Positions 32,756-38,045 of a stretch of DNA of 64,000 nt are shown here, piece by piece. A model generated the notes under the pieces. That model made no database searches and had not been told where the DNA came from. It saw only the letters and a list, made by a program, of their open reading frames with translations. Position 1 is the first letter of the stretch. Each line of letters begins with the position of its first letter. The position numbers and the translations under genes were made by a program. Origin of the DNA: an uncultured Clostridia bacterium (lineage in GTDB: Bacteria; Bacillota; Clostridia; Christensenellales; CAMQZB01); contig CAMQZB010000008.1 in the NCBI GenBank assembly GCA_947039455.1, positions 5,991-69,990 on the forward strand, given 5' to 3'.

Positions 32756-33298
32756 ATGTCAGATGAAATTTTAAAAGTTAATATCGGCGGATATCCTGCT
32801 GAACTACCAATACTTCCACTTCCATCAGGAATTAAAATCGCTTTTTTCAACCTACACGGTGATCAAAAACTAACGGAGCATTGCGGAAAAGTTTTGGCAA
32901 CATACCTAAGTGATTGCGATGTTTTAATAACTGCGGAGTCTAAAGGTTTGCAATTAACTCACGTTGTAGCACGTGAACTTAACCAACCTTTCTATGCAGT
33001 GGCTAGAAAAACAAAGAAATTATATATGCAAGACGGCATTGAAGTTATGATTAAATCATCAATTACTACTGGAGAAATTCAAAAGTTATTTTTGTCAAAA
33101 CATGACGTTGCTCTTATCAAAGGAAAGAGAGTAGGTATTATCGATGACGTGGTTTCTACTGGAAACAGCCTTGAAGGGTTAGAAGAAATAGTGGCTAAAG
33201 CTGGTGGAATTATCCAAAAGAAAGCCTTTGTTCTTGCTGAGGGCGATGCTGAATACAGAAAAGACATTATTTATTTGGCACATATTCCAATTATGTAA
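32756..33298 (+). CDS. Purine phosphoribosyltransferase family protein (Apt-like)
   Basis: TAESKG, VARK and IIDDVVSTGNS PRPP-binding motif. Confidence 0.85.
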   Translation: MSDEILKVNIGGYPAELPILPLPSGIKIAFFNLHGDQKLTEHCGKVLATYLSDCDVLITAESKGLQLTHVVARELNQPFYAVARKTKKLYMQDGIEVMIKSSITTGEIQKLFLSKHDVALIKGKRVGIIDDVVSTGNSLEGLEEIVAKAGGIIQKKAFVLAEGDAEYRKDIIYLAHIPIM

Positions 33299-33436
33299 TT
33301 AATTGTAAATTATTGAATTTAAGACTTTATTTTTTTGAAAATAAAGTCTTTTCTTTCATTTTCTATTGTATTAATATTGATTTTCACAAATAATTTTGAT
33401 ATACTAGAAGTCGAATGAAAAAATGGGAGTTATTAT

Positions 33437-34831
33437 ATGAAAGGAAAAATCGATTTAGGTAATGATAATATAACGAAATTGCTTATTAAGTTAGCAATTC
33501 CTGCAATTACAGCACAAATTATAAATGTTTTGTACAATCTTGTGGATAGAATTTATATTGCAAGAATTCCAGACGTGGGCAGTCTAGCCTTCACAGGGGT
33601 TGGAGTATGTATGCCGATTATTGCGGTAATCACAGCATTTTCATCACTAGCAGCGGTTGGAAGTTCCGCACGTGCAACTATCATGATGGGTCGTCAAGAG
33701 CATGGCAAAGCGGAAAATATTTTAGGAAACGCAGTAACAATGCTTATTGCATTTGCAATTATACTAACAACAACAGTACTACTTTTCGGCGAAGAAATTC
33801 TTCTATTATTTGGAGCAACAGCGGAAACTATTTCCTATGCTTGGGACTATATGAGTATTTACTCAATAGGAACAATCAGCGTAATGTTCGCACTTGGATT
33901 GAATACATTCATTGCTTGTCAAGGAAAAACCAAAATTAGCATGATTTCAACGTTAATTGGAGCTGTATTAAACATAATCCTTGATCCAATTTTTATTTTT
34001 GGATTAGGATTAGGAGTAAAAGGTGCAGCTTATGCAACTATTATTTCACAAACGGTCAGTGCAATTTGGGTCATTTCTTTCTTGCTTGGAAAAAATACAA
34101 TACTGAAAATAAGGTTGAAAAACATGATTCCAAAAATGAAAATCATGTTGCCATGTTTAGCCCTTGGACTTTCTCCTTTTATTATGCAATCAACTGAAGG
34201 GATTATCAATATATGTTTCAATACATCATTGCGAAATTTCGGAGGCAACAGTGCCGTAGCCACTATGACAATTTTGTCCACATTAATGCAATTCTCAATG
34301 TTGCCACTTCATGGGTTAACGCAAGGTGCACAACCAATCATGAGTTACAACTTTGGTGCGAAAAATGCAGATAGATGTAAAAAAACCTTTAAAATATTAG
34401 TAACATCAGGACTGATTTATTCAATGCTTTTCGCTGGAGTAGTTATGCTTTTCCCACAATATGTGGCAATGCTAATTATCCCAGACACAGCGGTAATCGC
34501 AAATTCAATAATACCAATGCGAATTTTCTTTGTGGGAACAACGATTTTTGGAGTGCAAATTGCTTGCCAACAAACATTTATCGCTATCGGAAACGCAAGA
34601 ACATCAGTGTTCCTTGCAATTTTCAGAAAGATAATATTGCTAGTTCCGCTAATTTATATCTTGCCACTTTTCATGGAAAACAAAGTAAATGCAGTTTACA
34701 TGGCTGAGCCAATTTCTGATATAATATCAGTAATCACAGCCGCAACAGTGTTCTACTTTAGTTTTAAAAAGGCAATGAGCAAAATTGAAAACAGCAAAAT
34801 AGAAGATAATGAAATGCTAAAAAGCAACTAG
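33437..34831 (+). CDS. MATE family efflux transporter (MepA-like)
   Basis: LYNLVDRIYI, NIILDPIFIF, GVKGAAYAT and QPIMSYNFGAK motifs. Confidence 0.92.
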   Translation: MKGKIDLGNDNITKLLIKLAIPAITAQIINVLYNLVDRIYIARIPDVGSLAFTGVGVCMPIIAVITAFSSLAAVGSSARATIMMGRQEHGKAENILGNAVTMLIAFAIILTTTVLLFGEEILLLFGATAETISYAWDYMSIYSIGTISVMFALGLNTFIACQGKTKISMISTLIGAVLNIILDPIFIFGLGLGVKGAAYATIISQTVSAIWVISFLLGKNTILKIRLKNMIPKMKIMLPCLALGLSPFIMQSTEGIINICFNTSLRNFGGNSAVATMTILSTLMQFSMLPLHGLTQGAQPIMSYNFGAKNADRCKKTFKILVTSGLIYSMLFAGVVMLFPQYVAMLIIPDTAVIANSIIPMRIFFVGTTIFGVQIACQQTFIAIGNARTSVFLAIFRKIILLVPLIYILPLFMENKVNAVYMAEPISDIISVITAATVFYFSFKKAMSKIENSKIEDNEMLKSN

Positions 34832-34851
34832 ATCTTAACTAACTAAAATGC

Positions 34852-34894
34852 AAAAAGCTGTATCAACCATTAAATGTTGATACAGCTTTTTTTT
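34852..34894 (+). terminator. Rho-independent terminator after MATE gene
   Basis: AAAAAGCTGTATCAAC...GTTGATACAGCTTTTTTTT. Confidence 0.85.
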
Positions 34895-34932
34895 GTATTA
34901 AATATATCCTTAGTGATATATATAGGTGTTAT

Positions 34933-35053
34933 AAAATAAAAACAGCAACATCTCTAGGGGGAGAAGTTGCTGTTTTTTAAAAGGAAATATAGGTAGGAAA
35001 AAGCATTTAACTTTATGAGTATTAAATGTCTTAAAGGAAATATCTTAGTTTGT
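34933..35053 (-). ncRNA. Candidate sRNA 1 of tandem array
   Basis: TGnTATTAT at 35068-35060, hairpin 35004-35028, conserved core 34981-35000, terminator 34938-34978. Confidence 0.6.
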
Positions 35054-35097
35054 ACTTATATAATAACAAACAATTAACGCACAAATTCAAGTATTTT

Positions 35098-35114
35098 ATG
35101 TGAAAACCATGTGA
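35098..35114 (-). promoter_or_regulatory. Putative response-regulator box upstream of sRNA 1
   Basis: TCACATGGTTTTCACAT (TCACAT repeated with 11 bp period), 33 nt upstream of the -10. Confidence 0.45.
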
Positions 35115-35185
35115 TTATAAATTAATTGCAAAATAACAGCAAAAAATTAATATACTACAATTTTATAAATCACAGTAAAAATTTA

Positions 35186-35315
35186 ATAAAAAACCACATA
35201 CGTTAATGTATGTGGTTTTTTAGATAAGGAAATATAGGGGAAAGGAAATTTTTTGACTCAATTTTAGGGTTAAGTCAGTGAATACCGCTTATCATAAGCG
35301 ATATCCAAGGGGTAT
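35186..35315 (-). ncRNA. Candidate sRNA 2 of tandem array
   Basis: TGnTATTAT at 35330-35322, hairpins 35286-35300 and 35254-35277, core 35226-35248, terminator 35188-35221. Confidence 0.6.
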
Positions 35316-35359
35316 GAATGTATAATAACATCCAAATAACGTATAATTTACTAATATAT

Positions 35360-35374
35360 ATGTGAAAATTGTGT
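35360..35374 (-). promoter_or_regulatory. Putative response-regulator box upstream of sRNA 2
   Basis: ACACAATTTTCACAT, at the same 33 nt offset from the -10 as in unit 1. Confidence 0.45.
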
Positions 35375-35410
35375 TTTTTTGTTTTCACATATTTTGAAAT
35401 AGTATTGTGA

Positions 35411-35571
35411 AAAATAAAATAAAGTCACTTTAATTAAAGTGACTTTATTCATAAAAGGAAATATAGGTAGGAAAATTTCTAATTAGGTTTATCAGACTAA
35501 TTAGTAATTATGTTTTTGGTTTTAATTTTTGGTGTATGTAACTTTTATTTGTGTCCCTCCTTTTTTATTAT
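35411..35571 (-). ncRNA. Candidate sRNA 3 of tandem array
   Basis: TGnTATTAT at 35586-35578, hairpin 35479-35504, core 35455-35474, terminator 35418-35449. Confidence 0.6.
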
Positions 35572-35724
35572 GACAATATAATAGCATGTGATTGTGTAAA
35601 AAGTTCATGAAAATTGTGTTTTTCTTGTGTGTTTTGATTTTTTTGTATTTTTACTCTATACATTTGCAATTTCTTATGGTAAAATATAGACATAATTAAT
35701 AAGCAAATGGAGAAATATATTATT

Positions 35725-36378
35725 ATGTATAAAATTTTTTTAGTTGAAGACGATCCGAATATTAGCTCATTGCTACGAACATACCTTGAAAACGAAGGTT
35801 ATTTCGTGAATTCATATACTTCTGAAAAGGCCGCACTTGCCCACCTAGGGGAAGAAGCGCATTTGTATATTCTTGATATAATGCTAGAATCCGAAATGAG
35901 TGGATACAATATTTTAAAAGCAATTCGTGCAAAAACATCAACACCAGCAATCTTTGTTTCAGCTCGCGACAAGGACTATGACAAAATTTTAGGTTTTGAA
36001 ATTGGTGCTGATGATTACGTGGCGAAACCCTTCTCACCAAGAGAAGTTGTGCTTCGTGTAAACAATATTATAAAACGTACTTATCAAAAAAAGGAAATGC
36101 GTTTAACTTATAAAAGCTATGATGTGGATTTAGAATCACGTTCTATTAAAGAAAATAACGAGGAAATTGATTTAACTACTAAAGAGTTTGAACTTTTCAT
36201 TTTCCTATTGAAAAACAAAAACATTGCACTTTCCCGTGACAAGATTTTAACTAACATTTGGGAGGAAAACTACTTTGGTTCTGACCGAGTGGTGGACGAC
36301 CTTATGCGTCGTTTAAGAAGTAAACTTGTAAATGCAGACATCGAAACAATTTATGGATATGGTTATAAGTTGCAATGA
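35725..36378 (+). CDS. OmpR-family response regulator, CssR-like
   Basis: LVEDD, HLYILDIML, SARD, DYVAKPF and YFGSDRVVDDLMRRLR...ETIYGYGY, closely resembling B. subtilis CssR as recalled. Confidence 0.9.
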   Translation: MYKIFLVEDDPNISSLLRTYLENEGYFVNSYTSEKAALAHLGEEAHLYILDIMLESEMSGYNILKAIRAKTSTPAIFVSARDKDYDKILGFEIGADDYVAKPFSPREVVLRVNNIIKRTYQKKEMRLTYKSYDVDLESRSIKENNEEIDLTTKEFELFIFLLKNKNIALSRDKILTNIWEENYFGSDRVVDDLMRRLRSKLVNADIETIYGYGYKLQ

Positions 36379-37649
36379 AAACTTTAAGATTATCAACACA
36401 ACTTTTGATAATTCTTCTGATTTCGTTAGTCTTGATTCCTATAATGGTAATTGGTTTTGCCTACCCTGAATATCAAAAAGGAGTGGCAAATACAATTTTC
36501 GCAAGACTAGAAGATCAGTTGGATCTAAAAAATCAAACAACTCAAGAGTTTATCGATTCAGTCTTGATCATTTCGCCAACCGGTGCAGTTGACGTGGCAA
36601 AAATCAAGACAGAAGATCAATATATTCCCAACGAAGCTTTGAGTAATATCATGGCTGCAGTTGTGAGTGCTGAACCTGGCGAGCATAGAGGCTCGGAAGT
36701 GCTATCAGATTATTCAGTGGTGTATTTTTCATTCAAGAAATATATAGACGACAGTTCAATGCTAGTTTTCACTACTAGTTACGAAAAAGATACATTTTTT
36801 GGAAATGAAGAGTCCCTGCAATTTATCTCACTAATCTTCGCTTGCATTGCAATCCCTATCGTATTAATATTGATGTGGTTTGCCTACGTTTCTAAGTCGA
36901 TTCAATCGATTCAACGATCAGTGAACGAAACCTCAGTTAGACCTGTTATGGCGTCAAAAGAACTTTCTAATCTTCAAGAGAGCATAGAAATTTTTAAAGC
37001 GGAAATCCGAGAGGATACCGAACAGAAACAACGGCTGTTCCAAAATATCTCCCACGAACTGAAAACTCCAATTACAACAATTAAAATGTATGCGGAAGGT
37101 ATCGAAGACGGTATTTTCAAAGACGGCGACATTAAAAATTCAACACAAATAATCAAATCAGAAACAGACGAGCTGCTAGCACGTGTTACAAAAATCATGG
37201 ATATAAACAAACTGTATCACGTTGAAACGAAAGCAATCTCACTGCGTATGGAAAAAATAATTTTGTCAGAAACAATATTTGAAAACCTTGGTCTGTACGA
37301 AAAACGTGCCCCTCAAGTAAAATTCCACGCTCAACTTGAACGATTCGAATGGGTCGGAAACAAAGAGCTTTGGACTAATATTCTTCAAAACATTTTTGAC
37401 AACAATATTAAGCACGGCGCAAAAAATATCTTCATTACCCTAAAGAAAAATGAACTGGTAATCGAAAACGACGGCGAAAAAATCGAAGACCACCTTCTAC
37501 AAACCCTTTTCGCTGCTTTCACAAAAGGCGAAAACGGAAACTTCGGTCTAGGGCTAAACATCGTCCAACGCTCACTTATCCTACTAGGTTACGCCATAGA
37601 AGTAAAAAACACCGAAAAAGGCGTAGTATACCGTATCTTTGTAAGATAA
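36375..37649 (+). CDS. Sensor histidine kinase, CssS-like
   Basis: Two TM helices, QNISHELKTP H-box, ENDG and GNFGLGL; ATGA overlap with the response regulator. Confidence 0.9.
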   Translation: MKTLRLSTQLLIILLISLVLIPIMVIGFAYPEYQKGVANTIFARLEDQLDLKNQTTQEFIDSVLIISPTGAVDVAKIKTEDQYIPNEALSNIMAAVVSAEPGEHRGSEVLSDYSVVYFSFKKYIDDSSMLVFTTSYEKDTFFGNEESLQFISLIFACIAIPIVLILMWFAYVSKSIQSIQRSVNETSVRPVMASKELSNLQESIEIFKAEIREDTEQKQRLFQNISHELKTPITTIKMYAEGIEDGIFKDGDIKNSTQIIKSETDELLARVTKIMDINKLYHVETKAISLRMEKIILSETIFENLGLYEKRAPQVKFHAQLERFEWVGNKELWTNILQNIFDNNIKHGAKNIFITLKKNELVIENDGEKIEDHLLQTLFAAFTKGENGNFGLGLNIVQRSLILLGYAIEVKNTEKGVVYRIFVR

Positions 37650-37697
37650 TTTAAGCAAGATATATTTAAAATTAAGTATAATAAGTAAGATTAAGAA

Positions 37698-37748
37698 AAA
37701 TGGGGCGATTTGCCCCAAACCCCAATAAGGGGCTGAGCCCCTTAACCC
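37698..37748 (+). repeat. GC-rich multi-hairpin repeat, copy A
   Basis: AAATGGGGC-GATTT-GCCCCAAACCCCAATAAGGGGCTGAGCCCCTTAACCC, homologous to copies at 50.2-52.1 kb. Confidence 0.8.
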
Positions 37749-37877
37749 TCTTAGTGTGTGGTTATGTTAAAAAGCTATAGTAGTTAGATTCAAATCCTAA
37801 CTACCATAGCTTTTTTTATTTTCAAACAAATCCGAAAAGCAAACTCTTTTGTAAACACCAAAAAACCAAAAAAAGTA

Positions 37878-38045
37878 AAGAACTCCCCCGCAACAAAGCG
37901 CAAGGCTGGAACAACCAAAAAGCTTACTCATTAATAAACAATAAAAAACATACAAACCATTAAGAAACTTCCCCGCCACAACGTGGCAAGGCTGGAACAA
38001 CCAAAAAGCGCACCCCTTAACAAATAACACAAAACATACAAACCA
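37878..38045. repeat. Two imperfect ~86 bp direct repeats
   Basis: GCAAGGCTGGAACAACCAAAAAGC at 37900 and 37986, each followed by AAAACATACAAACCA. Confidence 0.8.

Follow-up and report, generated by a model that had tools for sequence, protein, structure and literature searches.

Multicopy, CU-rich small RNAs (sRNAs) controlled by a two-component system form a known class, of which LhrC with LisRK and the csRNAs with CiaRH are the systems closest to the locus analysed here: three tandem units on the minus strand of a 64,000-nucleotide stretch from an uncultured Clostridia bacterium (GCA_947039455.1, contig CAMQZB010000008.1, positions 5,991 to 69,990; hereafter the window), divergent from the genes of a response regulator (RR) and a sensor histidine kinase (HK). 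In the extracts of PMC4132741, LhrC1-5 of Listeria monocytogenes are near-identical copies, lhrC1-4 at one locus and lhrC5 elsewhere, that depend on the envelope-stress system LisRK; a responsive promoter element lies at -55 to -75, and CU-rich motifs situated in a loop, in a stretch that is single-stranded and in the loop of the terminator block the Shine-Dalgarno (SD) sequence of the target. The csRNAs of streptococci, according to the extracts of PMC3091779, number two to six siblings per genome and were found through the direct repeat of the RR followed, within 250 nt, by a -10 and a terminator; two stem-loops flank an unpaired, conserved stretch complementary to initiation regions, and the CiaR box, NTTAAG-N5-TTTAAG, stands 10 nt from the -10. 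Partial text of PMC12826053 gives htrA as regulated by CiaRH, LisRK and CssRS, and that of PMC6749698, citing Darmon 2002, gives the canonical CssR box of Bacillus as TTTTCACA. At the level of titles and abstracts, the literature yielded neither a CssRS-dependent sRNA nor a family of sibling sRNAs in Clostridia linked to a two-component system.

The units are a credible new member of this class and, as a gene family, are well supported. We consider it reasonably probable that they are RR-activated, SD-blocking sibling sRNAs of ~120-225 nt; their transcription, control by the RR, pairing, targets and signal we infer from sequence and by analogy. The source assembly (G000) comprises 1.85 Mb at 34% G+C in 31 contigs and is 91.7% complete; the window is C8:5991-69990 in it.

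Results

Architecture of the three units

The units lie in the gap at 34832-35724 between a MATE efflux gene and the RR gene, which is free of open reading frames (ORFs): no ORF of at least 42 aa lies in it, and no small ORF is common to the units. Read on the minus strand, all three have the same order of direct-repeat box, 30-nt spacer, extended -10 TGnTATTAT, variable 5' body, CU-rich core and intrinsic terminator. With cores beginning at 34981, 35226 and 35455, the spacing is 245 and 229 nt; these positions, the 24/24 identity of the cores of units 1 and 3, the variant core of unit 2 and the minus-strand -10 all hold as initially annotated. Predicted sRNA starts were assumed to lie 7 nt past the -10.

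The sRNA predicted from unit 1 (~121-128 nt; 34926-35053, minus strand) ends in the U tract at 34926-34937 and its fold shows a hairpin at the 5' end, then the core and a terminator. Its box, TAATCACATGGTTTTCACATAAA, spans 35095-35117, scores 23.0 with a position weight matrix (PWM) and has its last CA-AA ending 30 nt before TATTAT; the extended -10, TGTTATTAT, was placed at 35068-35060 by sequence and alignment. The core, UUUUCCUACCUAUAUUUCCUUUUA (34978-35001), is 100% identical to 35452-35475 and has a mean predicted probability of being unpaired, P(unpaired), of 0.76. The terminator hairpin at 34938-34977, with CCCCC in its loop and one stem mismatch, appears as an inverted repeat with 17-nt arms (94%) and in the minimum-energy fold; the terminator consensus scan missed it. 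Besides the core and the CCCCC of the terminator loop, unit 1 carries a second AUAUUUCCUUU. Its matches in the whole-genome profile searches have E values of 8.9e-13 for the promoter and 1.9e-9 for the core.

Unit 2 (predicted sRNA of ~133 nt; 35180-35315, minus strand) has two 5' hairpins, a fold of -40.4 kcal/mol and a core P(unpaired) of 0.96. Its box, AAAAAACACAATTTTCACATATA (35357-35379; PWM 21.6), and its -10, again TGTTATTAT (35330-35322), were placed by alignment, the latter also by sequence; the core variant at 35226-35248 reads UUUCCUUUCCCCUAUAUUUCCUU, also given as TTTCCTTTCCCCTATATTTCCTT, and the consensus scan calls a terminator of 15 pairs plus a T run at 35187-35222. Three CCC(C) motifs are predicted unpaired in this RNA: at the 5' end, in the loop of the second hairpin and in the core.

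In unit 3 (predicted sRNA of ~162 nt; 35408-35571, minus strand; folded core P(unpaired) 0.59), the box AAAACACACAAGAAAAACACAAT at 35613-35635 (PWM 20.7) stands upstream of the RR gene, whose start is ~90 nt away on the opposite strand. The -10, TGCTATTAT, was placed at 35586-35578 by sequence and alignment, the core spans 35452-35475, and the consensus scan calls the terminator at 35417-35450. CU-rich motifs occur in the core only, as they do in the copies of two related genomes described below.

Between 34700 and 35800 the consensus scan found four terminator-like sites, where shuffles gave 0.2 +/- 0.5; units 2 and 3 were called on the minus strand. The initial annotation had given every unit both a promoter and a terminator; the scan bears out the terminators of units 2 and 3, and that of unit 1 is seen only as the inverted repeat and fold.

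A fourth copy and a single conserved core

Copies were sought by profile, pattern and PWM searches. A complete further unit emerged on contig C23 (14918-15200, plus strand; ~1270-1556 of locus L003; predicted sRNA of ~223 nt), between two minus-strand genes and distant from the RR and HK genes; box, -10 and core are the same, the terminator is strong, the TGTTATTATATAAGTAC start region is shared, and the body is longer than in units 1-3. Exact matches to the 20-mer core number three across the 1.85-Mb genome, one of them on C23, against none for its reversed control; the 13-mer CCTATATTTCCTT has exactly four genome copies, those of the three units and C23. The recurrence of the core exceeds chance. 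Across the whole genome, a promoter profile returned only the four copies (E 1e-10 to 9e-13; next best 0.3), as did a core profile (E 6e-7 to 2e-9; next best 4.7); because the copies themselves built the profiles, these searches show only that nothing else resembles them. The count of three sibling genes first proposed is corrected to four for this genome, three of them in the gap, and the upstream direct-repeat box is an addition to that proposal.

The sole conserved element of the RNAs is a CU-rich stretch of 19-24 nt, UUCCUACCUAUAUUUCCUU, which lies immediately 5' of the terminator and is predicted to be mostly unpaired. Its identity is 0.88-1.00 among the canonical copies and the orthologues in the two related genomes (z 3.8-5.9), and 0.74-0.78 to unit 2; the transcribed bodies of the paralogues resemble one another no more than shuffled sequence does (z -1.0 to 1.7). 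On this comparison, selection acts on the RNA core and not on the whole unit, which upholds the original argument for selection on RNA function. For the 3' modules RNAalifold returned no consensus structure, since their terminator stems do not fall into register.

An AAGGAGG motif lies near the 5' end of unit 3 (35545-35565) and of unit 4 (~1345-1355 of locus L003), and no start codon is suitably spaced from it; in the predicted folds it can pair with the CU-rich core of its own RNA, and it may thus mask the core or act in the manner of a sponge.

A core-like sequence just upstream of the window (C8:5150-5260), TTTTTACACAA...TTTACACCTATATTTCTTAATT, has two mismatches and a terminator hairpin directly after it. 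Two near-identical units ~184 nt apart at a contig end of the source genome (C30:6526-6722) each finish with a hairpin that carries CUCUUUCCUUUU in its loop, then a long T run; no box was seen there, and the pair may be a repeat at the contig end.

Relatives and the two-component system

The taxonomic family is represented in our collection by six genomes of four genera, the source genome included. Two of these, G001 and G002 of the sister genus g2, carry one copy each, in which the core is lengthened by UA and promoter, core and terminator are kept together; in both, as in G000, the sRNA gene is divergent from RR and HK genes orthologous to those of the window (RR 77-78% identity, HK 49%). 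Three of the six family genomes have both the RR orthologue and the core; in the remaining three (95%, 94% and 92% complete) neither turned up. The single-copy orthologues of G001 and G002 strengthen the link to the two-component system that had been drawn from the window, and the architecture of core and terminator is conserved in them.

Wider searches added no carrier. A search of 201 genomes of the order for the RR gave three further matches only, at 47-48% identity, and a scan of all species genomes returned the same two close relatives only. The core pattern with up to three mismatches matched 62 of 301 genomes order-wide, exactly in G000 only, and the reversed control also matched many genomes; none of the 29 loci inspected from this search had the core-plus-terminator arrangement, ~45 further places lying outside the inspection. 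One of the 29 had been flagged by a crude filter, and its T run sits inside a hairpin; the outcome of this search was taken as noise. Weak core-like matches in G002 (contigs C63, with one mismatch, and C77), G003 and G004 were set aside as lacking a terminator or lying in a coding context, and a single exact core match in a JGI metagenome, on an AT-rich contig with neither promoter nor terminator, was judged to be chance.

In the genomes of genus g20 (loci L051, L052 and L053), where the RR is 47-48% identical, the divergent gene encodes not an sRNA but a conserved secreted protein of 172 aa, coiled-coil-looking and without a Pfam family. This layout, we take it, recalls cpxP-cpxRA. The protein gene lies behind a repeat, ~29 nt from TGTATAAT, that looks box-like by eye; the repeat scores below 8 bits with the PWM, so that the formal test was negative.

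Strand of transcription

At every locus with ORFs listed, the next gene downstream of the sRNA is convergent; the sRNAs are therefore stand-alone genes rather than leaders. In G001 and G002 a T run follows the hairpin on the CU-rich strand only, the opposite strand reading CTAAAAGG. These one-strand terminators, with the conserved promoter, place transcription on the minus strand of the window, the orientation that had been preferred from the outset, and the comparison likewise supports stand-alone minus-strand sRNA genes. Hfq was found in G000 only.

Promoters and the direct-repeat box

The six promoters, four from G000 and one each from G001 and G002, align gap-free from box to -10, with a spacing of 30 nt in all six; ACA...CA.A and positions of the -10 are invariant. 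The box is a direct repeat with an 11-bp period and CACA-type half-sites (TTTTCACA, TTTAACACAA, TTTACCACAA and similar), and the extended -10, TGnTAtTAT, is accompanied by no recognisable -35. To judge from these sequences, activator-type promoters are the best explanation.

With the PWM, 64 positions in G000 score above 12, and three of the six best non-self matches are intergenic. The best, TTTTCACACTGTTTTAACATAAT (C11:17973-17995; 21.8), stands beside an operon for a small membrane protein, DsbD_TM and a thioredoxin-like protein (ccdA/thioredoxin); on its other flank lies an ORF that looks acetyltransferase-like by eye, and no clear terminator follows. A second (C6:31430-31490; 20.1), just upstream of CIRCE and hrcA, has four half-sites in a row, TTTACCACAA, TTTTCCCATAAA, TTTTTCACATAAA and TTCTACCATAAC. 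The third (C23:1775-1797, minus strand; 16.4) lies between an MFS gene and the divergent, sole htrA-like protease gene of G000 and reads toward the MFS gene as box, 29 nt and TATAAT; the pairing of the two genes is syntenic in G001 and G002, where a box scoring 12.8 upstream of htrA reads toward htrA. Box-like sites near htrA, hrcA and the ccdA/thioredoxin operon suggest that the signal would be envelope or protein-folding stress.

Neighbouring genes

The RR (35725-36378, plus strand) is of the OmpR/PhoB family, with Pfam domains Response_reg and Trans_reg_C, and is 77% identical to its G001 orthologue over 217 aa. Its ORF opens at 35707; the second ATG, 35725 (MYKIF...), with which the orthologues begin, stands ~10 nt downstream of a GGAG and is the likely true start. 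The HK (36375-37649, plus strand; HisKA and HATPase_c; 49% identical to its G001 orthologue) shows, by eye from its sequence, two hydrophobic stretches flanking an extracytoplasmic stretch of ~115 aa. On the other side, the MATE gene (33437-34831, plus strand) has its own terminator at 34852-34891 and is convergent with sRNA gene 1; in G001 and G002 a different gene takes the place of this neighbour. The MATE gene is outside the sRNA/RR system.

The initial annotation called the two-component system CssRS-like. An OmpR-type RR and a two-transmembrane kinase, the latter by eye, are shared with CssRS of Bacillus subtilis. The exact octamer TTTTCACA occurs in four of the six sRNA promoters (units 1 and 2, G001 and G002), and in each of the three genomes the intergenic region at htrA has box-like repeats. 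The resemblance to the CssR box carries little weight, however, because the octamer is so common, with 303 exact copies in the AT-rich G000 genome; a tandem TTTTCACA probe allowing up to three mismatches was unspecific, finding 164 pairs, and of the four G000 boxes only that of unit 1 passes it. Neither RR nor HK reaches an NCBIfam equivalog cut-off and no CssR or CssS model was returned, the best matches of the RR, all below cut-off, being PhoB of Bacteroidetes, CreB, VanR, YycF, CseB and BaeR; because of this, the label cannot be founded on family membership.

Discussion

The design of the units matches that of the csRNAs and of LhrC, in which SD pairing is documented, and it is for this reason that we regard RR-activated, SD-blocking sRNAs as the most likely reading. 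As in LhrC, tandem copies (here three) are joined by a distal one. The box lies at ~-43 to -63 under the assumed start; unit 2 has three unpaired CCC(C) motifs, unit 1 has CCCCC in its terminator loop, and unit 3, G001 and G002 have the core alone. Unlike the LhrC copies, which are near-identical throughout, the paralogues are alike only in core and promoter; their common motif is UUCCUACCUAUAUUUCCUU rather than CUCCC...UUUU, no Rfam family, LhrC included, reached its threshold, and the array adjoins the two-component genes. An unpaired region between two stem-loops, as in the csRNAs, is predicted in unit 2, G001 and G002 (P(unpaired) 0.96-0.97), and an anti-AUG CAU 7 nt 5' of CCUACCU occurs in G001 and G002 only; the box, unlike that of CiaR, is CACA-type and stands 30 nt from the -10 in six of six promoters, and Rfam again gave no match.

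We envisage that the adjacent OmpR-family RR, phosphorylated by the membrane HK, would bind the box and activate all four promoters, and that the CU-rich core would then pair with purine-rich ribosome-binding regions of mRNAs, lowering their translation. Feedback by such pairing appears weak, at -5.5 to -10.1 kcal/mol for the core against the initiation regions of RR, HK and MATE. The second-best predicted target is the ribosome-binding region of secE (C11:9984-10007, minus strand), at -22.8 kcal/mol with the core.

Several points weigh against this picture. Against 1511 modelled initiation regions, the core reaches a minimum of -24.0 kcal/mol, with 71 regions at or below -15; 3 of 60 composition-matched shuffled cores reach the real minimum and 11 of 60 the real count. 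A genome-wide duplex scan did no better than shuffles either, and the name 'anti-SD', given to the core in the initial annotation, finds no backing in these comparisons. The best predicted target has no orthologue in G001 and G002, and the complementarity of secE to the core is absent from both. The core is predicted to be only partly free in unit 3 (P(unpaired) 0.59) and unit 4 (0.53), because the 5' AAGGAGG can pair with it. Position is the one ground for assigning the box to the RR, its PWM was built from six related sites, and the other three of the six best non-self matches apparently lie in coding sequence. A sigma-70 consensus scan found 7 promoter-like sites, against 9.0 +/- 3.0 in shuffles; this fits -35-less, activator-dependent promoters and is not positive support for them. 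The co-occurrence of RR and core is drawn from six related genomes of four genera, and the sRNA family was found in three genomes only. RNA runs labelled as the same species, four in number, gave 0, 4, 0 and 0 reads, too few to bear on expression.

Some of these points would also suit minus-strand sRNAs that are real and work in another way, the core serving as a protein-binding site or as a sponge for purine-rich RNA, or a different regulator reading the box: pairing at the level of shuffles, targets that are not conserved, an AAGGAGG in units 3 and 4 able to pair with their own core, and a box tied to the RR through its position are all as such a scheme would have them. We think this unlikely, though deserving of some weight, given that an unpaired CU stretch between 5' hairpin and terminator is where the extracts of PMC4132741 and PMC3091779 place it in proven SD-blocking sRNAs of low-GC Gram-positive bacteria, and that synteny and co-occurrence with RR and HK extend to all three carriers. 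That the transcripts would be functionless by-products of duplicated regulator-binding DNA, which titrates the RR or positions it for the divergent RR/HK operon, strikes us as improbable. Autoregulation is common in OmpR-family operons, and the box of unit 3 lies close upstream of the RR start; the best-conserved element, however, is the transcribed core by the terminator rather than the box alone, a complete fourth copy stands on a different contig, remote from the RR, and G001 and G002 retain promoter, core and terminator as a set.

On another reading, the units would be diverged homologues of RsaE/RoxS, the C-rich sRNA of Bacillales. RsaE/RoxS is itself under two-component control (ResDE/SrrAB) and likewise has C-rich unpaired motifs followed by a terminator. 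It is the best Rfam match (RF01820; unit 2, minus strand 35188-35285, E 0.044), spanning the whole model and aligning the CCCC motifs and the terminator, but with 30.1 bits against a gathering score of 79 it falls far short, and a single copy of the six matches: units 1 and 3 have no RsaE match at E<=10, nor have the fourth copy, G001 and G002 at E<=1, and CCCC is absent from the core common to five of the six copies. We hold such descent to be very improbable. Within 33000-38000 of the window, Rfam returned 21 matches at E<=10, none at its gathering score and none LhrC, and at the fourth-copy, G001 and G002 loci (L003, L005 and L006) there was no LhrC and no relevant match at E<=1. Least credible of all are plus-strand, GGA-rich RNAs acting as CsrA sponges, although the plus strand does read AAGGAAAUAUAGGUAGGAAAA and has TATAAT-like hexamers: CsrA (PF02599) was found in none of the three genomes (G000 91.7%, G001 and G002 96% complete), the control genomes being positive; on that strand the hairpin precedes the core, leaving the GGA motifs in the linker downstream of it; G001 and G002 have no plus-strand T run after the hairpin; and the conserved register of box and -10 belongs to the minus strand. 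The earlier choice of the minus orientation gains from both the missing CsrA and the one-strand terminators.

Taking RR-activated, SD-blocking sRNAs as the preferred reading, we can tentatively sketch a larger one, which we consider possible but doubtful as a whole. The locus may add a third case, the first from Clostridia, to a recurring Gram-positive module in which a two-component system for the folding of secreted proteins, of the htrA-controlling kind (CiaRH, LisRK, CssRS), fires multicopy CU-rich sRNAs. The RNA arm would have been amplified from one gene, as in G001 and G002, to four; the 5' domains would have diverged freely, and two copies would have gained an SD mimic that masks the seed, giving a graded or self-limiting output.

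The practical reach of these findings is limited, the organism being known from assembled genomes only and the family having been found in three of them. If our reading is true, this uncultured clostridial lineage would have its first sibling-sRNA family linked to a two-component system, and one outside Rfam; the design of LhrC/LisRK and csRNA/CiaRH would extend to Clostridia, and htrA-type envelope-stress systems would, as is suggested here, repeatedly recruit CU-rich sRNAs. The expansion from one gene to four, in which only seed and promoter were kept, offers a clean case for the evolution of sRNA families.

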